From contig CAWDZM010000001.1 in assembly GCA_963807165.1 (NCBI GenBank), positions 119,963 through 183,962 of the forward strand: a DNA stretch of 64,000 bases, written 5' to 3'. This document shows positions 4,355 to 62,722 of this stretch, piece after piece; positions within the stretch are counted from its first letter, which is position 1; each line of letters opens with the position of its first letter. The DNA is from an uncultured bacterium. GTDB taxonomy: Bacteria > Patescibacteriota > Minisyncoccia > UBA6257 > 2-01-FULL-56-20. The position numbers and the translations under genes were made by a program. A model generated the notes under the pieces. It was not told the DNA's origin and searched no databases. It saw only the letters and a list, made by a program, of their open reading frames with translations.

Positions 4355-4720
4355 ATGGCAAATCACGAAGATTTAATTTCGAAAATAGAGTCTCTCACGG
4401 TAGTTGAGCTCGCGGAGCTCGTGAAGAAGCTTGAAGAGAAGTTCGGCATCTCGGCTGCGGCCCCGGTGGCGGCAGGCGGCGGAGCCGGCGCAGCTGCGGC
4501 GGAAGAGAAGACGGCATTCAACGTTGTCCTCAAATCGGCCGGAGCAAGCAAGTTGAACGTCATCAAGGTTGTCCGCGAAGTGACGACCCTCGGCCTTAAG
4601 GAGGCAAAGGATCTCGTAGACGGCGCACCGAAGACGATCAAAGAGAACGTCAAGAAGGAAGAGGCCGAAGAGATCAAGAAGAAGATCACGGAGGCAGGTG
4701 GAGTTGCGGAGATCGCATAA
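4355..4720 (+). CDS. rplL: 50S ribosomal protein L7/L12
   Basis: [29 protein letters not shown]...[41 protein letters not shown]. Confidence 0.9.
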
Positions 4721-4723
4721 AAC

Positions 4724-4797
4724 AAAAAGCCCCTCTTATTTGACGAGAATGCCACGTAGGAACGTGACCGCCAAATAAGAGGGGCTTTTTGTTTTAT
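4724..4797 (+). terminator. rho-independent terminator after rplL
   Basis: aaaagcccctcttatttg ... caaataagaggggcttttt-gtttt. Confidence 0.7.
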
Positions 4798-4844: not shown

Positions 4845-4916
4845 GGGCGTTTAGCTCAGTGGTAGAGCGTTCCGTTCACATCGGAGAGGTCGCAGGTCCG
4901 ATCCCTGCAACGCCCA
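4845..4916 (+). tRNA. tRNA-Val(CAC)
   Basis: Acceptor GGGCGTT/AACGCCC, D-arm GCTCAGTGGTAGAGC, anticodon stem TTCCG/CGGAG with loop TTCACAT, T-arm GCAGGTCCGATCCCTGC. Confidence 0.8.
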
Positions 4917-4920
4917 CAAA

Positions 4921-5036
4921 AAGAATTCCCCATACGTCCTTTCAGGGACGTGTCGCGGCCTACTGGCCGCGCACTCTATCTCGGCGCTCTTCGCGCCTCC
5001 GATGAGCCCCTCAAAGAGTATGGGAATTCTTTTTTA
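4921..5036. repeat. cloverleaf-like multi-hairpin element (17-bp outer stem enclosing three hairpins); probable bidirectional terminator between tRNA-Val and the convergent minus-strand gene
   Basis: Outer stem aaaagaattccccatac/gtatgggaattctttt; inner hairpins cgtcctttcagggacg, gtcgcggcctactggccgcgcac and tcggcgctcttcgcgcctccga. Confidence 0.5.
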
Positions 5037-5039
5037 GAT

Positions 5040-14788: not shown

Positions 14789-15394
14789 ATGACAAAAAAA
14801 GATCTTAGTGCGAGCCTTGTCATCGGCGCCGCGGTCGGTCTGCTCATTCAGCCGATCCTTGCGAACACGATCACGAGCATTCATCTGACGATCCTGACGC
14901 GCATCGGCATCTTCGTGTTCTTCTCTGTGTTCGCGCCGTTCGCGCTCTGGCTCTGTTCGCTGATCGCAAAGCTATGGAAGGCATTCTATCAGTTCGGCCA
15001 GTTCGCCGCGGTGGGAACGTTGAACAGTTTCATCGATATCGGCATCTTTAACCTGGAGACGTTCCTTTATGCCGCGCCGATCTCGACACCGATCTTCGCC
15101 GTGTTCAAAGCGATCTCGTTCCTGTGTGCTACCACAAACAGCTTTTTCTGGAACAAGAACTGGACCTTTGGTTCGACGGATAAAGTGAACGTGGGCGAGG
15201 TGACAGGATTCTACACGATTGCGCTCGTCGGATGGGGATTGAACGTCGCCATCGCGACGTTCGTAAAATCAGTCGGCCCAGAGACGAAGTTGTGGATAGA
15301 TATCGTCGCGCCGGTTTCCGGAATTCTCGTCACTTTCATCTGGAACTTCGTGGGATACAAGTACTTCGTGTTCAAGAAAAAAATAACGGTGTAA
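14789..15394 (+). CDS. GtrA-family membrane protein
   Basis: Multi-TM; FAAVGTLNSFIDIGIFN...NKNWTFG...NFVGYKYFVF, the GtrA signature. Confidence 0.65.
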   Translation: MTKKDLSASLVIGAAVGLLIQPILANTITSIHLTILTRIGIFVFFSVFAPFALWLCSLIAKLWKAFYQFGQFAAVGTLNSFIDIGIFNLETFLYAAPISTPIFAVFKAISFLCATTNSFFWNKNWTFGSTDKVNVGEVTGFYTIALVGWGLNVAIATFVKSVGPETKLWIDIVAPVSGILVTFIWNFVGYKYFVFKKKITV

Positions 15395-15398
15395 TTTT

Positions 15399-15480
15399 CC
15401 TGGAGGCACTACCACATCCTTTTCTGACCGTTGCGTCTGGGCACTAGATCAGAAAAGGATGTGGTAGTGCCTCCAGAGGA
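15399..15480. terminator. long perfect hairpin (28-bp stem) downstream of the gtrA-like gene
   Basis: ctggaggcactaccacatccttttctga / tcagaaaaggatgtggtagtgcctccag. Confidence 0.6.
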
Positions 15481-15619: not shown

Positions 15620-15718
15620 AAAACCTCTGATTTTTGGCTGCGCCTTCATTTTGCCTCGTCATCGTATGGAAATACGATTCCTCGGCAAAATTCGGCTCGC
15701 CTAAAAATCAGAGGTTTT
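15620..15718. repeat. 18-bp inverted repeat enclosing a structured ~63-nt loop
   Basis: aaacctctgatttttgg ... ccaaaaatcagaggttt arms. Confidence 0.4.
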
Positions 15719-21438: not shown

Positions 21439-21614
21439 CAAGCGGTCACGCGATTGTCCGGAACGAATGTTCTTGCCAATCGCGTGACCGCTTACTGGGC
21501 ACGATCGGAGCCGCTGTGGCACTGATAGGGCGTTCTGCAGAATAATGCACCGCCAAGCAGTTCATTTACAACCGCACTTTCGCCTCAAGCGAAAGGATCT
21601 CACTAGGAGGGATC

Positions 21615-23670: not shown

Positions 23671-23761
23671 GTAAAATAGCGAAAAAATATAAAAAGACTC
23701 ATTTTTAAAATGGGTCTTTTTAATATCATTAGTTTTCAGAAAGAAAAGGTAAATAATTTTG

Positions 23762-23880
23762 CCACATACTAGGAGCATGCCCTTTGAGGGTATCGCGGAG
23801 CCGCGAAGGCGGCGAGCGTAAGGGACCGCGCAGCAGCGCGGAACCCGTCCCTCAAGGGGTATGCTCCTGGTATGTGGGTG
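23762..23880. repeat. long hairpin (29-bp stem, ~57-nt GC-rich loop) between the FKBP and response-regulator genes
   Basis: ccacatactaggagcatgccctttgaggg ... ccctcaaggggtatgctcctggtatgtgg. Confidence 0.55.
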
Positions 23881-23908
23881 GTTTTCTTTATCTTTTCTTG
23901 ATAATTTA

Positions 23909-44721: not shown

Positions 44722-44800
44722 TAAATAAAATAGGGATAGGTGTTGAGCGAGTGGACGTTCTTACGTCGGAGTGAAATATCTATCCCTATTTTATTTTTGG
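44722..44800. repeat. hairpin carrying the conserved core (copy 3, reverse orientation); bidirectional terminator between convergent genes
   Basis: aaaatagggatag...GAGCGAGTGGACGTTCTTACGTCGGAG...ctatccctatttt; overlaps the stop of the minus-strand dsbB-like gene. Confidence 0.7.
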
Positions 44801-45352
44801 CCGATGCAATAACATAAAGCACAATATGAGTGCGAATGCGGTCAGCGACATCGTCGGGATGGTGATGTAGCCGTACATAAGGAAATAGACATAAGAGCAC
44901 GTGGGACCGATTGCCGAGCAGGGGACGATCGCACCGCCGCCGAACTGAAGATACATATGATAGGCGGCGATGGGGAATCCGATCGCAGAAAGAATAAGGC
45001 ACGCTTTTTGGGTAAAGTTTTGGAATTTGCGCACGTGTTCTTCTTTACGCGCAAAGAGCGCGAGGAAGAGGATCACTGACTGCGTGTAGAGAAGTCCGCG
45101 CTGGATCCAGCAGAGCTCACACGGCGCAAAGTGCGCGAACTCGGAATAGAAGAGGCTTCCCGCCACACCGCCGGCGGCGACAAGGAGCGAAAGAAGTATG
45201 GCGCGATCTCCAGTCAACGATGCTATTTTTTTACCCCAGCGCGTTTCGCTCAGCGGCGTGAGGATGATCGCAAAAAGAAATACGATCGCGACATCAGCCG
45301 CGATGGTGCCAAGGGAAAGAACATTGGTAACAGCTTGGACGAAAGGGGTCAT
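44786..45352 (-). CDS. dsbB: disulfide bond formation protein B (DsbB/BdbC-like)
   Basis: 4-5 TM; CELCWIQR (CxxC) and a second Cys pair CSAIGPTC. Confidence 0.65.
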   Translation of the reverse strand: MTPFVQAVTNVLSLGTIAADVAIVFLFAIILTPLSETRWGKKIASLTGDRAILLSLLVAAGGVAGSLFYSEFAHFAPCELCWIQRGLLYTQSVILFLALFARKEEHVRKFQNFTQKACLILSAIGFPIAAYHMYLQFGGGAIVPCSAIGPTCSYVYFLMYGYITIPTMSLTAFALILCFMLLHRPKIK

Positions 45353-45394: not shown

Positions 45395-45805
45395 TTACAG
45401 CGTGCAGCCGGTTTTTGCCGCGAGCGTCGCAGGGGTTTGCACGCCGACAAGGCGCGAGCCATCGGCAAAAACCCACGTCGGATATTGCACGATATCGTGA
45501 TCGATACACACCTGCGTTTGCCCAGAGCCGCTGGGAAGTGAGCACTCAACATACGGGAGATATTGTGCTCCGGTGCCGAACTTTGTCTTCTGTGCCTCGC
45601 AATGCGGGCACCAGAACGCACCATAGAACGTGGTGCTGCTTTGTGCGATGCATTTTGCGAGCGAATCATATTCATGGGCTGGCGGCGGCAGTCCCTGCCA
45701 ATATACAAACGCGCCGAGCGCGACACAAATAGCGAGCATCACCCAGATGGAAATCCGAATCCGCCGCAGGCTGCGTTTTTGTTCTTCGGTAGCACCCTTC
45801 ACCAT
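45395..45805 (-). CDS. membrane-anchored thioredoxin-like thiol-disulfide oxidoreductase
   Basis: N-terminal TM; active site WCPHC; adjacent to the dsbB-like gene. Confidence 0.65.
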   Translation of the reverse strand: MVKGATEEQKRSLRRIRISIWVMLAICVALGAFVYWQGLPPPAHEYDSLAKCIAQSSTTFYGAFWCPHCEAQKTKFGTGAQYLPYVECSLPSGSGQTQVCIDHDIVQYPTWVFADGSRLVGVQTPATLAAKTGCTL

Positions 45806-45887
45806 TGGTTAATCGTACTACTTTTTATAACGTGGTGGAAATGGGATAATGAAATAAATCAATTTTCATGCTGTATTAGATTTACAG

Positions 45888-46472
45888 GTGCCTACCAATC
45901 ATATGCCGGAACTATCAGCAGACATAGAAAAGAATGACGAAGAGATAGCGATGCTGGTGCAAAAGGGAAATGTAGAGTCGTTCCGCGTTTTAGTGGAGCG
46001 GTATGAACCGAAGATGACGCGGTATGCCAAGCGGTTCTTTTTTGATGGTGACGATGGCAAAGACCTCGTGCAAGAGGTCTTTATAAAGGCGTATGTGAAC
46101 ATCAAAAGTTTTGACGTCTCCCGGCGCTTCTCGCCATGGATCTACCGCATTGCACATAACGAGTTTGTTAATAATATCAAACGGCGGCAAAGGGATCGGG
46201 ATACCACCTCGGTCTTTGATTTCGACGTGTTATTTCCTCATTTAACGGCAAAGGAGACCGCGGATGATGGATCCAATAAAGCAGAACTGAAGCAGATGCT
46301 CGAGAAGTCTCTTGATATGCTAAACGAAAAATATAAAGAACCCCTCGTGTTGTATTATTTTGAAGATATGGATTATAAAGAGATCGCAGATATTCTGCAT
46401 ATTCCGATATCAACGGTCGGCGTGCGTTTACAGCGGGGGAGGGCAATGTTAAAAAAAATCGTCAAGGAATAA
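45888..46472 (+). CDS. ECF-subfamily RNA polymerase sigma factor
   Basis: Region 2 (DLVQEVFIKAYVNIKSFD...FSPWIYRIAHNEF) and region 4 (LVLYYFEDMDYKEIADILHIPISTVGVRLQRGRAMLKK). Confidence 0.8.
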   Translation: MPTNHMPELSADIEKNDEEIAMLVQKGNVESFRVLVERYEPKMTRYAKRFFFDGDDGKDLVQEVFIKAYVNIKSFDVSRRFSPWIYRIAHNEFVNNIKRRQRDRDTTSVFDFDVLFPHLTAKETADDGSNKAELKQMLEKSLDMLNEKYKEPLVLYYFEDMDYKEIADILHIPISTVGVRLQRGRAMLKKIVKE

Positions 46473-46487
46473 TACTATAGTAAAAAA

Positions 46488-47177
46488 ATGGAAAACAGTG
46501 AGGAGATCATCAATACCATACAGAGCGGCGAGGCAAAGATGCATTCGCAGGCTTACTTTGTCGTGCAAGCGGTGCTTGCGATCATCGCCGCGCTCGTACT
46601 CTTCTTCCTTATCGTTTTCATCGCCACGTTCATCATCTTTGCCCTTCAGCAAAATGGCGGATTCTTTGCGACGAACTTCGGGTTGGGCGGTTGGGCAATA
46701 TTCTTGGAATCATTGCCGTGGGTAATTTTTCTTCTCTCCATCGCGCTCTTACTCATTCTGTGGCTGCTCCTGCGGCGCTACTCAGTTGTTTATCATCAGC
46801 CGGTGCTCTACACATTGCTTATCCTTATTGTTGCTATAGGGCTCATCGCAGTTTTCCTATTCCCGGATTCTATCCACGGCGGCATTCTCCGTTACGCATC
46901 AAGGAATCAAATGCCGATCGTGGCGGGAGTGTATGAATTTGAAACCGCCCCAATGAGCGGAATCTATCGCGGCCAGGTGGTTGTGCTTGCGACGAGCAGC
47001 TTTATCCTTGGAAATTCGCTTGGACAGACTTCAACCGTGCTCATTGTGCCGCCCTCTAGCGCATCATCGGAGCTCGGTGATATCGAGCCGGGGAATTACG
47101 TCATTATTTTTGGCCACGGTGTTGCAACCGCCACCATTGAGGCCTCGGGCGTAGAGAAAATCGTAGATTACGAGTAA
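46488..47177 (+). CDS. hypothetical membrane protein, possible anti-sigma factor
   Basis: Gene order; four TM helices; no motif. Confidence 0.4.
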   Translation: MENSEEIINTIQSGEAKMHSQAYFVVQAVLAIIAALVLFFLIVFIATFIIFALQQNGGFFATNFGLGGWAIFLESLPWVIFLLSIALLLILWLLLRRYSVVYHQPVLYTLLILIVAIGLIAVFLFPDSIHGGILRYASRNQMPIVAGVYEFETAPMSGIYRGQVVVLATSSFILGNSLGQTSTVLIVPPSSASSELGDIEPGNYVIIFGHGVATATIEASGVEKIVDYE

Positions 47178-47304
47178 GTGAAAGAAAGGAATTGAGGAGG
47201 TGTATTAAGTGATGAGCAGCAAAGGTCACAAATCAATAAAAAAATATGCCTATGGTCCGCTTTGGGCGGAGTGAATAAAACCAATAAAAAAATATCATGC
47301 ATAA

Positions 47305-47465
47305 ATAGAGCAAACCCTCCCTCGCTTTCGACCCGAGTGGAGGGTTGCTGTTTATCCTGGCTCTTGAAAGGACGGCGTTCCGGCCTGCTGACCGGCCGCC
47401 TTGGCTCTCAGCGCCTTCGCGCTTCCGAGACACCTTTCAAAAGCCAGGATAAGCAGCAACCCATC
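47305..47465. ncRNA. candidate structured ncRNA (long irregular hairpin, ~25-bp closing helix); strand undetermined; SRP-RNA-like or 6S-like
   Basis: Closing helix GCTGTTTATCCTGGCTCTTGAAAGG / CCTTTCAAAAGCCAGGATAAGCAGC; inner hairpins; overlapping spurious ORFs on both strands; 5' string GUUGCUGUUUAUCCUGG resembles the bacterial SRP RNA 5' consensus. Confidence 0.3.
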
Positions 47466-47489
47466 CCACGCTAGTGTTATAATTAAAAG

Positions 47490-47882
47490 ATGCTTGGAAG
47501 AGATTATATCGCACCCTATTGCGCAATTCTTTTTGTATTTGCGGTTGCAAGCATTTGGTTTGGCCGGGTTGGACATTTTTTCTACGCTTCTTTAGCGGGT
47601 TGTATCATCTATTCTTCCTTATTAATATGGTTTCTACTTCCTTTTATAAAACAAAAATTGCCAATTATTATAGGTAGGTCTCTTTTTCGTATTGCGAAAG
47701 TCGTAGAAGGTTGGGATGCTATTTTCCTTTCTCTGATATTTTTAGTTCCCCTAATAGCAGCCGGGGTGGTAATCGAGATTCTTTTTCCGATTAACATCTA
47801 TAGCTTTCTTATCTCCCTTCCCATCGGAGGAGGCGTGAGCTATTGGTTTTTTTCTAAAACAACGGCCGTAAAGCCTTTTTAA
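47490..47882 (+). CDS. hypothetical membrane protein (4 TM)
   Basis: ORF plus hydrophobicity pattern. Confidence 0.4.
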   Translation: MLGRDYIAPYCAILFVFAVASIWFGRVGHFFYASLAGCIIYSSLLIWFLLPFIKQKLPIIIGRSLFRIAKVVEGWDAIFLSLIFLVPLIAAGVVIEILFPINIYSFLISLPIGGGVSYWFFSKTTAVKPF

Positions 47883-47921
47883 GATAGCTATTATCGGCTA
47901 TCTGTGTTACGGTTAGCCCAT

Positions 47922-50517: not shown

Positions 50518-51180
50518 ATGCACACCATACAACAAAAACTGTTAGCGCTGGCGGAAAAGAAAAACTTGGGTAACTTCACCCTGCGGGAGATTGGTGGGTT
50601 CGTGGGCGAGACGTCGCCACAGAAGATAAAACATCACCTTCAACAGCTTGAGAAGCGGGGATTCATTCATATCAATAAAATGGAACACACAATAAAAACC
50701 ACAAAACAGCAGGGCCCGACGGTAAAAGGGATACTAGGAAATGCCAAACTGCTTTCCATCCCGATTCTTGGATCAGCCAACGCCGGCCCGGCAATGGTCT
50801 TCGCCGCCTCAAATATCGAGGGCTATCTCCGCGTTTCGAGCTCTCTCGTCGCACGACCTCGATTGTCGCACCGGCTGTTTGCCCTTAAGGTGGATGGCCC
50901 GTCCATGAATATGGCGTACGTTGGTGGGAAGAAGATCGATAATGGGGATTATGTGATCATCGACAGCGAAGACCGGGAAGCGATGAATGATGATATTGTG
51001 CTTTCCGTTATTGATGGAATGGCAAACATCAAAAAATATTATGTTGATAAGGAAAATAACCAGATCCTTCTCATGTCCGAATCCACGCACGATTTCCCGG
51101 CGATCCACATCCATGAGAATGATGATTTTTCAATCAACGGCAAAGTGGTGGGCGTGATCAAGACACCGAAGAAGAAATAA
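50518..51180 (+). CDS. lexA: LexA-family repressor (wHTH plus S24 peptidase)
   Basis: N-terminal wHTH; cleavage-site-like ANAG; VDGPSMNMAY (Ser nucleophile) and ...MANIKKYY (Lys). Confidence 0.7.
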   Translation: MHTIQQKLLALAEKKNLGNFTLREIGGFVGETSPQKIKHHLQQLEKRGFIHINKMEHTIKTTKQQGPTVKGILGNAKLLSIPILGSANAGPAMVFAASNIEGYLRVSSSLVARPRLSHRLFALKVDGPSMNMAYVGGKKIDNGDYVIIDSEDREAMNDDIVLSVIDGMANIKKYYVDKENNQILLMSESTHDFPAIHIHENDDFSINGKVVGVIKTPKKK

Positions 51181-51247
51181 AAACACCCCTAGCTATTTCG
51201 CTCCAGCGTAGGAACGCCCACTCGCTCAATAGCTAGGGGTGTTTTTA
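51181..51247 (+). repeat. hairpin carrying the conserved core (copy 2) with T-run; terminator after lexA
   Basis: aaaacacccctagctattTCGCTCCAGCGTAGGAACGCCCACTCGCTCAATAGCtaggggtgttttt. Confidence 0.7.
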
Positions 51248-51317
51248 TTTCTTGTGACAACAATTTGACGATATGGCTATAGAAATGCTATGATATTTCG
51301 GCACGGAGGAAATCAAA

Positions 51318-58225: not shown

Positions 58226-58837
58226 ATGAAATACGAACTACCAAAACTTCCTTATGCGTACGATGCGCTCGAACCGTACATTGATGCACGCACGATGGAA
58301 ATCCATTACACCAAGCATCACCAGACGTATGTGAACAAGCTGAACGAGGCGCTTGATAAGCATCCGGAGATCGCGGATAAACCGCTCGAAGAATTACTCG
58401 CCAACCTGGATGCGGTGCCGGAAGATATTCGCGGCGCGGTGCGCAATCACGGCGGCGGTCATTTAAATCATTCATTCTTTTGGACGATCATGGGACCACG
58501 CGCGTCTGGTAGCGATAACGCGCCGATCGGCGCGATGGCGGATGGTATCGCGAGCGCGTTCGGCAACTTCGCCACATTCAAAGAGGAATTTACCAAAGCC
58601 GCCGCCGGTGTGTTTGGCTCGGGCTGGGCATGGCTTGTGGTGGATGCCGATGGCAAGCTTGCGGTAACCTCAACGCCAAACCAGGACAGTCCGCTTTCAA
58701 AGCATCAAAAGCCATTGCTTGGGCTCGATGTATGGGAGCATGCCTATTATCTCAAGTACCAAAATATGCGCCCCGATTATATCAACGCGTGGTGGAGTGT
58801 GGTAAATTGGAAATCAGTAAACGAAAAATATAGCTAA
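58226..58837 (+). CDS. sodA: Fe/Mn superoxide dismutase
   Basis: [38 protein letters not shown]...GSGWAWL...DVWEHAYYL. Confidence 0.9.
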
Positions 58838-58841
58838 CACC

Positions 58842-58897
58842 CTTGAGCGAGTGGACGTTCTTACGTTGGAGCGAGGGGGTCTTAGCTATATTTTTTT
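58842..58897. repeat. hairpin carrying the conserved core (copy 4, reverse orientation); bidirectional terminator between sodA and fmt
   Basis: tagctaacaccctTGAGCGAGTGGACGTTCTTACGTTGGAGCGAgggggtcttagcta. Confidence 0.65.
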
Positions 58898-62671: not shown

Positions 62672-62722
62672 CGCACAAAGGGGAGGGTTGGCGCACAAAT
62701 GTGCGGCAACCCTCCCCTTTTT
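62672..62722. terminator. bidirectional rho-independent terminator (small ORF / rpmA)
   Basis: aaggggagggttggcgcacaaatgtgcggcaaccctcccctttttacttt. Confidence 0.7.

Follow-up and report, generated by a model that had tools for sequence, protein, structure and literature searches.

A probable conserved non-coding unit with a duplicated ECF sigma promoter-like motif adjoins a dispersed long hairpin in a Minisyncoccia bacterium

We analyzed a 64,000-nt stretch of DNA from an uncultured Minisyncoccia bacterium (hereafter the window; positions 119,963 to 183,962 of contig CAWDZM010000001.1, assembly GCA_963807165.1), focusing on the structured intergenic interval at 47305-47465, which lies between the genes of a 229-aa and a 130-aa membrane protein. 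A previous sequence-only reading had described this interval as one candidate non-coding RNA similar to signal recognition particle (SRP) RNA or 6S RNA. Our analysis showed that the interval probably contains two separate elements and not one gene: the terminator of a small RNA and a repeat element joined to it. With modest confidence, we propose that the locus is a composite in which the terminator of a predicted small RNA, dependent on the neighboring extracytoplasmic function (ECF) sigma factor, is fused to a palindromic hairpin that belongs to a dispersed family and would be kept perfect by template switching. The idea of a candidate non-coding RNA held up to the extent that a conserved non-coding unit probably ends in the interval; the proposed SRP and 6S identities did not. 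The features discussed below are listed in Table 1.

Orthologous loci were gathered by protein look-ups of homologues of the 229-aa protein, a 22-mer scan, and a gapped pattern scan, resulting in approximately 25 distinct locus variants. The exact 22-mer scan of 185,579 species-representative genomes recovered six genomes with one copy each, including a complete chromosome of 881,652 bp, and the gapped pattern scan of metagenome contigs recovered 20 contigs, also with one copy each. Two further related loci, which lacked a usable DNA file, are not part of the comparison.

A bipartite motif is duplicated around the ECF sigma operon. The pattern TGAAAK-N16-TGTAnTA had two matches in the window (at 45850 and 47179) compared to 0.02 expected, and it occurred exactly twice, with the same 16-nt spacing, in each related locus covering both regions. 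All related loci that extend to the region upstream of the sigma gene have copy 1 in the same position, and in copy 2 the elements TGAAA, AAA, and TGTA.TAA were invariant among 20 aligned sequences. The best NCBIfam models for the ECF sigma factor were those of SigW, with scores under the equivalog cut-off, and the consensus of Bacillus SigW promoters is TGAAAC-N16-CGTA. Because the same motif precedes the sigma gene, the sigma factor is SigW-like, and the motif resembles the SigW consensus, we read copy 2 as a predicted promoter used by the adjacent SigW-like sigma factor.

According to the proposed mechanism, this sigma factor would recognize two near-identical promoters, that of its own gene and one directly after the gene of its membrane partner. 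From the latter, a + strand non-coding RNA of approximately 145 nt would be transcribed, starting near 47212 and ending near 47355 with a core hairpin (47309-47349) and its U-rich tail. The invariant single-stranded segment AUCAUGCAUAAAUAG and the 9-nt hairpin loop CUUUCGACC are candidate interaction surfaces through which such an RNA may act in trans.

Alignment of the related loci revealed that the approximately 130 nt from the stop codon of the 229-aa gene to an invariant block are conserved in blocks, the first two of which are the bipartite motif. The predicted small RNA consists, in order, of a 5' region, an optional hairpin H1, an invariant AAAGGTC block, a hairpin H2, an A-rich stretch, a second invariant block, and the terminator hairpin. 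H1 is an insertion of variable length. H2 (47256-47270) covaries, with the pair at columns 137/154 being CG in 10 sequences and UA in six. The G.U cells in both H2 and the core hairpin favor the + strand, and in the latter these comprise a U.G in L005 and a G.U in L023. The second invariant block, 44 nt long (ATCATGCATAAATAGAGCAAACCCTCCCTCGCTTTCGACCCGAG, 47294-47337), holds the 5' arm and loop of the core hairpin and was identical in all but three lineages, while the neighboring protein was 53-89% identical; the exceptions were one substitution in L023, one insertion in L037, and several positions in the most distant loci, L006 and L007.

The core hairpin begins approximately 100 nt downstream of motif copy 2 and is followed by the U-rich sequence GUUUAU (47350-47355; 4 U in 6). 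It was single-copy per genome in the six GTDB species representatives, including the one with a complete chromosome. In L006, its stem carries the compensatory change AGCAA/UUGCU to ACGAA/UUCGU and is directly followed by a U-rich tail, AUUUUAUU (ATTTTATT), with no long hairpin. A scan with a terminator consensus flagged only a sub-hairpin (47329-47347) in the core region. Taken as a predicted intrinsic terminator, the core hairpin is probably the most conserved part of the small RNA.

Several other interpretations of this region were rejected. Only short, mutually overlapping open reading frames (ORFs) cross 47305-47465, as the sequence-only reading had said, and none of them is kept in frame among relatives. 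No conserved ORF was found on either strand in the predicted small-RNA region, where short ORFs shift frame or vanish among loci; this applies to a 20-aa ORF from the ATG at 47213, a 41-aa frame through the hairpin, and 44- and 66-aa ORFs on the minus strand. A sigma-70 promoter at TGCATAAAT (47298-47306) does not fit the TGnTAnAAT form seen in the window and would lie inside the predicted RNA. A tRNA-like identity of the core hairpin was dismissed since it shows no consistent acceptor pairing and no model match. For a pseudoknot between loop bases CGACC and block AAAGGUCG, both partners are invariant and the window itself breaks one pair.

Small RNAs are frequent core members of ECF regulons (PMC11257525, PMC5036791). 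The predicted RNA resembles the sigma-E-dependent MicA, RybB, and MicL of E. coli, the SigAb-dependent SabS of Acinetobacter, and the RpoE-dependent Pos19 of Rhodobacter in sharing its promoter motif with the sigma gene itself and in being a short non-coding unit that ends in a hairpin with a U-rich tail; MicA, RybB, MicL, and SabS exemplify this design in stress responses. It differs from them in lying directly behind the sigma operon in a Paceibacterota lineage, in showing no sequence or Rfam kinship with any known small RNA, in being predicted here from sequence, and in having the terminator hairpin, not a 5' seed, as its most conserved part.

The second element is the long hairpin at 47342-47462. 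It had been described as a near-perfect 25-bp helix with one U-G pair; the helix is real, and its arms are longer. The arms (47342-47371 and 47433-47462) are 30 nt each, 93% complementary, and separated by a 61-nt spacer, and their stem comprises 28 Watson-Crick pairs, one U.G pair, and one C.A mismatch that had been overlooked. Folding of a 176-nt segment gave -82.6 kcal/mol (z = -7.1) for the + strand and -94.2 kcal/mol (z = -6.2) for the - strand, and none of 200 shuffles equaled either value. In the minimum-free-energy fold, a three-way junction in the interior joins two further hairpins, and these are the two inner hairpins named previously. Three features had escaped notice: the far more conserved core hairpin within the same interval, the sharing of GGGTTGCT (47342-47349) between the core and long hairpins, and the recurrence of the interior of the long hairpin elsewhere in the window.

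Unlike the core hairpin, the long hairpin is exchanged among orthologous loci. A three-way-junction form (type A) was present in the window and approximately 12 other variants, a related, longer form (type B) in L008 and L015, and an unrelated, simple form (type C) in L003, L014, L022, L033, and L036. The hairpin was truncated in L011 and L027 and absent from L006. Different types occurred even among close relatives, with kinship judged by upstream sequence. In L024, its place is taken by an odd, very GC-rich stretch (GGCGGAGCGCGGCCGGGGGGGGCGCGCCCGCC...), which is either another hairpin type or an assembly artefact. Directly 3' of the hairpin, decayed sequences resembling the 3' half of a tRNA (T-arm, 3' acceptor strand, and sometimes CCA) were seen in L020 (e.g., GGCTTGAATCCAGTCCGGTGCACCA), L023, L013, L025, L036, L008, L003, and L037, and none in the window. 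Neither ARAGORN nor Rfam recognized these remnants, and a tRNA identity was rejected since they show no consistent acceptor pairing and no model match; they may have been left behind by an old tRNA gene or by integration.

The closing stems of 19 orthologous variants diverged widely in sequence among lineages and yet remained paired, with 576 Watson-Crick, 5 G.U, and 5 A.C cells (97% Watson-Crick). Indels were compensated on both arms, as in CTGGCT/AGCCAG in the window and CTGAGCT/AGCTCAG in L031. Furthermore, in the hairpin region of L003 (3921-3980), the 10-nt loop, TTAATCTTCC, is the exact reverse complement of the L014 loop, GGAAGATTAA, on almost identical 35-bp stems, a clean case of spacer inversion in nature. 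In the window, the stem reaches into the small-RNA terminator, re-using its 3' arm and U-tract. Template switching is documented as a process that gives rise to hairpins and preserves them, flips spacers, and enlarges inverted repeats (PMC8794818, PMC8604942, PMC13100816), and the near-perfect arms despite divergence, compensated indels, loop inversion, and extension into a functional neighbor all resemble hairpins formed in this way. We therefore attribute the perfection of the stem to template switching during replication, which would homogenize the arms, invert loops, and expand repeats; the locus-specific stem would have grown outward until the 3' arm and U-tract of the terminator were re-used. 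Template switching is an evolutionary mechanism and not a function, and it leaves the conservation of the asymmetric apical module unexplained.

This apical module is dispersed. A covariance model (R1) built from the type A interior matched three sites in the window, whose interiors are common and whose 29-30-nt arms are unrelated. The copy at 4917-5037 lies directly 3' of a tRNA gene (4845-4916), between convergent genes, and has an A-tract and a T-tract at its stem ends; that at 23750-23890 lies between the genes of an FKBP-type isomerase and a response regulator. Both paralogues have U-rich tails, and an Rfam search with the 23781-23858 copy gave no family match. The type A paralogues are only approximately 65-70% alike and their pairing is kept, which argues for age and constraint and against recent spread.

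Wobble-pair bias and folding suggest that the RNA sense of the module at this locus is the - strand. Compensatory changes were found in 12 of 17 pairs of the type A helices in the plus sense and in 15 of 24 pairs in the minus sense. The minus-sense consensus fold reached -29.8 kcal/mol with 24 pairs and 13 G.U cells, compared to -19.7 kcal/mol with 17 pairs, no G.U cells, and 8 A.C cells for the plus sense; almost all of the non-Watson-Crick cells read as A.C on the + strand and thus as G.U on the - strand. In 13 of 16 cases, the minus sense gave the more stable single-sequence fold. The G.U bias and fold stability together suggest that the module, if it functions as RNA, would be read here in the sense opposite to the small RNA. 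A minus-sense module would face transcripts arriving from downstream, where many relatives have convergent genes, and in the 23781-23858 paralogue the same module sense is co-directional with the flanking genes, with a U-rich tract coming after it. The long hairpin would likely separate the small-RNA gene from the downstream region as a 3'-end barrier or insulator, mainly against opposite-sense transcripts.

A second module, type D, consists of the apex TCC-GACGT-AAGA-ACGTC-CACTCGCT flanked by C/U-rich unpaired strands on long locus-specific stems. The stem of the copy at 51172 takes in the stop codon of a LexA-like gene, and the type D hairpin at the end of this gene is orthologous in L013 (4940-5010), where the apex is the same and the arms are different and compensated. 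Types A and D together indicate that a conserved apex on a free, near-perfect stem is a general arrangement in this genome. Many other near-perfect hairpins of 22-30 bp occur at gene 3' ends in the window. Among the long hairpins observed, that at 15400-15476 is perfect (28/28 bp with a 21-nt loop), follows an ORF ending at 15394, and has neither A/T tracts nor a recognized apical module; others lie at 4717-4797, 15620-15718, 21440-21493, and 62677-62720. The 4917-5037 paralogue and the type D hairpins resemble bidirectional intrinsic terminators in having an A-tract, stem, and T-tract between convergent genes, but their stems, at 25-36 bp, greatly exceed the usual length and bear a conserved apical module, and the 47342-47462 copy differs further in having no U-tract on either strand.

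Several observations count against the composite as proposed. The promoter is predicted from its motif. In most lineages, a weak U-tract (GUUUAU) follows the core hairpin, and termination there may thus be partial. Conservation is higher in the terminator than in the remainder of the RNA, an unusual pattern among small RNAs. Scans for small-RNA targets within the window found no site above background. Directly 3' of its stem, the long hairpin has AUCCCACGC (+ strand) or UCCACUCGGG (- strand), neither of which is a U-tract, and it therefore does not qualify as a canonical intrinsic terminator. The window itself has no minus-strand gene that faces the long hairpin, and the minus-sense bias of the module is drawn from approximately 8-14 partly non-independent cells.

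An unlikely alternative is that there is no separate small RNA, the conserved stretch being the 3' untranslated region of the sigma/membrane-protein operon with a tandem-hairpin terminator; the second motif would then serve for protein binding or as a decoy. Consistent with this, the conserved region starts at the stop codon or within approximately 40 nt of it, the TGA stop forms part of the TGAAAG motif in some loci, the core hairpin and its U-rich tail are terminator-like, and long 3'-end hairpins are the norm in this genome. However, a plain terminator would leave unexplained both the 44 near-invariant nucleotides, beside a protein that is only 53-76% identical, and the exactly spaced duplicate of the motif upstream of the sigma gene.

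It is rather unlikely that the long hairpin acts as DNA, either as a recombination or integration site or as a mobile hairpin cassette comparable to folded attC or CTX-type attP sites. The swapping of hairpin types among close relatives and the variable downstream gene content speak for such an element, as do the tRNA 3'-half-like sequences abutting the hairpin in at least eight lineages, the equal rarity of G.U and A.C in the stem, and the compensated arm indels. However, the three window copies share neither termini nor target-site duplications, no integrase or transposase gene was found next to the element in any locus examined, and the preserved pairing of paralogues that are approximately 65-70% alike points to age and constraint. 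Specific element classes also fitted poorly. A MITE, or transposable element of the miniature inverted-repeat type, was rejected because the arms are unrelated among the three copies, flanking direct repeats are missing, and the interior alone is shared. Integron attC boxes were not found: the hairpin base reads GGGTTGCTG/CAGCAACCC at this site, compared to CAAAAAGAATTCC and CCACATAC at the paralogues, and none of these fits the R''/R' core (RYYYAAC ... GTTRRRY). An oriC, terminus, or dif site was rejected since the GC skew is positive along all 64 kb, showing neither origin nor terminus, and orthologues do not retain the DnaA-box-like TTATCC found in the arms.

The closest structural parallels to the repeat are the REP/BIME, ERIC, and Correia elements, which are likewise dispersed imperfect palindromes of approximately 100-150 nt at gene 3' ends in either orientation, and which can fold in mRNA and act as terminators or stabilizers. 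In comparison with REP/BIME/REPIN sequences, the type A module is similarly dispersed and intergenic, with three copies per 64 kb at 3' ends in both orientations, but its apex is conserved and not its arms. In the known families, by contrast, the arms or terminal repeats are conserved; here the arms are locus-specific, no target duplication or associated transposase was seen, although no genome-wide search for a RAYT transposase gene was made, and the copies are old and covarying.

The genes downstream of the element vary in identity and orientation among loci. In the window, a 130-aa membrane-protein gene is followed by a DEAD-box helicase gene; by lineage, the space between hairpin and helicase holds the 130-aa membrane protein gene, an M50 peptidase gene, small minus-strand ORFs, or nothing. 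A GATAGCTATTAT box upstream of the helicase gene (47883-47894) has the same position in L014, L015, L017, and L037 and is retained with or without genes inserted between hairpin and helicase. DEAD-box helicase genes often have long regulated leaders, and we considered it quite unlikely, if conceivable, that the ECF promoter drives a regulated leader in which the core hairpin is an attenuator of read-through into the helicase gene as its ancestral neighbor. In L006, L014, L015, and L017, this gene does follow the element by approximately 40-130 nt. In the window and many other loci, however, other genes intervene, some on the opposite strand with their own terminators, and the helicase gene retains its own conserved box. 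Moreover, the terminator is the least conserved part of riboswitch-like leaders and the most conserved part here. The differences in downstream genes among loci make a dedicated leader less likely than an independent small RNA.

It is very improbable that the long hairpin is itself a housekeeping non-coding RNA gene (SRP RNA, 6S RNA, or similar): its fold is very stable and its interior helices covary, but neither strand matched a covariance model, even with the limit relaxed to E ≤ 10, relatives have the hairpin absent, truncated, or swapped for unrelated ones at this site, there are three paralogous copies per 64 kb, and neither a 6S bubble nor an SRP helix-8 apex is present. We ran cmscan on the whole window at gathering thresholds and on 47150-47560, both strands, at E ≤ 10. 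The former yielded five tRNAs only; the latter gave only sub-threshold generic matches, such as a plant miRNA precursor at 20.7 bits. RF00169, RF01854, RF00013, and RF00023, the families named in the sequence-only reading as a check, were all without a match on both strands, as were RNase P, YrlA, and every other Rfam family. Since no family matches either strand, the SRP, 6S, and transfer-messenger RNA (tmRNA) readings fail. For SRP RNA (RF00169, RF01854), the apex is a three-way junction and not a GNRA-capped helix 8, and the SRP-like strings that had been noted are not conserved, the arm sequence varying among orthologues and the hairpin being missing or replaced in some. For 6S RNA (RF00013), the 30-bp stem runs without interruption, has one mismatch, and lacks a 6S-like central bubble. 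The likeness to RF00169 and RF00013 thus comes down to a long, stable, mostly helical intergenic fold, set against the lack of a model match, the wrong apex or bubble, the multiple copies, and the non-conserved orthologous site. An Rfam search of five related loci at E ≤ 1 gave no SRP match, and ARAGORN found no tmRNA or tRNA in 18 related loci; tmRNA was rejected on this null result together with the absence of an Rfam match in the interval, all of the window's tRNA matches lying elsewhere.

The genes flanking the interval are as previously stated, except that the label "anti-sigma-like" for the 229-aa protein stands by position only. This protein matched no Pfam entry above the curated cut-off and no NCBIfam family, its only hit being a weak one to DUF4131 (E = 0.0073; 16.4 bits, with the cut-off at 31.6). 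Looking up the protein encoded in the window by exact match returned no record, and its homologues formed 61 clusters, the named ones belonging to Minisyncoccia/Paceibacterota, a group of Candidate Phyla Radiation (CPR) bacteria. The ECF sigma gene probably starts at an ATG a few codons further in. Two genes run divergently from the sigma operon, that of a 136-aa protein with a CxxC-like motif and a weak mycoredoxin match (45395-45805, -) and that of a DsbB homologue (44786-45352, -), and these neighbors hint at a link between the ECF system and envelope or disulfide stress. Downstream, the extended -10 box TGTTATAAT belongs to the next transcription unit and lies outside the element. It fits TGnTAnAAT, a common promoter form with 13 occurrences in the window, mostly just upstream of genes. 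Because it ends 6 nt before the ATG, the mRNA of the 130-aa gene may be leaderless or nearly so.

Table 1. Coordinates of the observed and predicted features in the 64,000-nt window.
Feature	Position	Strand	Remarks
Motif copy 1, TGAAAT-N16-TGTATTA	45850-45878	+	Just upstream of ECF sigma gene; presumed autoregulatory promoter
ECF sigma factor gene	45888-46472	+	Pfam Sigma70_r2, Sigma70_r4_2
229-aa multi-pass membrane protein gene	46488-47177	+	Beside sigma gene; synteny conserved in related loci
Motif copy 2, TGAAAG-N16-TGTATTA	47179-47207	+	Predicted ECF-sigma-dependent promoter of the non-coding region
Predicted small RNA, ~145 nt	47212-47355	+	From alignment A1 and consensus fold; transcription start site and 3' end inferred
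Core hairpin, AGCAAACCCUCCCUCG-CUUUCGACC-CGAGUGGAGGGUUGCU	47309-47349	+	16-bp GC-rich stem, 1-nt bulge, 9-nt loop (47325-47333); predicted terminator
Long palindromic hairpin	47342-47462		121 nt; 5' arm re-uses 3' arm and U-tract of core hairpin
Type A module	47362-47442	R1 match +; suggested RNA sense -	84.1 bits
Type A module	4938-5016	+	85.8 bits; hairpin 4917-5037
Type A module	23781-23858	-	74.6 bits; hairpin 23750-23890
Type D modules	2025-2110, 44723-44796, 51172-51253, 58824-58895	Both orientations	Gene 3' ends
Extended -10 box, TGTTATAAT	47475-47492	+	6 nt before ATG (47490) of 130-aa membrane-protein gene

CPR bacteria cannot grow alone, and their regulatory RNAs and transcription signals are almost unknown. 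The locus gives a concrete triplet of a sigma factor, a promoter, and a predicted small RNA in such a lineage, and a false lead toward SRP or 6S annotation has been removed. It also offers a clear natural example of long RNA/DNA hairpins kept perfect via template switching. More speculatively, and doubtful as it stands, the hairpins may represent an undescribed class of Paceibacterota 3'-end elements, in which conserved apical modules (type A, a three-way junction; type B, related to type A; type C; and type D, an internal-loop module) sit on locus-specific, near-perfect stems of 25-36 bp, are exchanged like cassettes among loci and lineages, and have their stems rebuilt by template switching, with one socket fused to the terminator of a predicted ECF-sigma small RNA that carries the near-invariant 44-nt block. 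Repeat families with a conserved apex and a free stem are the opposite of classical MITE and REP families. If the modules are bound by a dedicated termination, RNA-decay, or recombination protein, they would constitute a new RNA/DNA element system of ultra-small bacteria.

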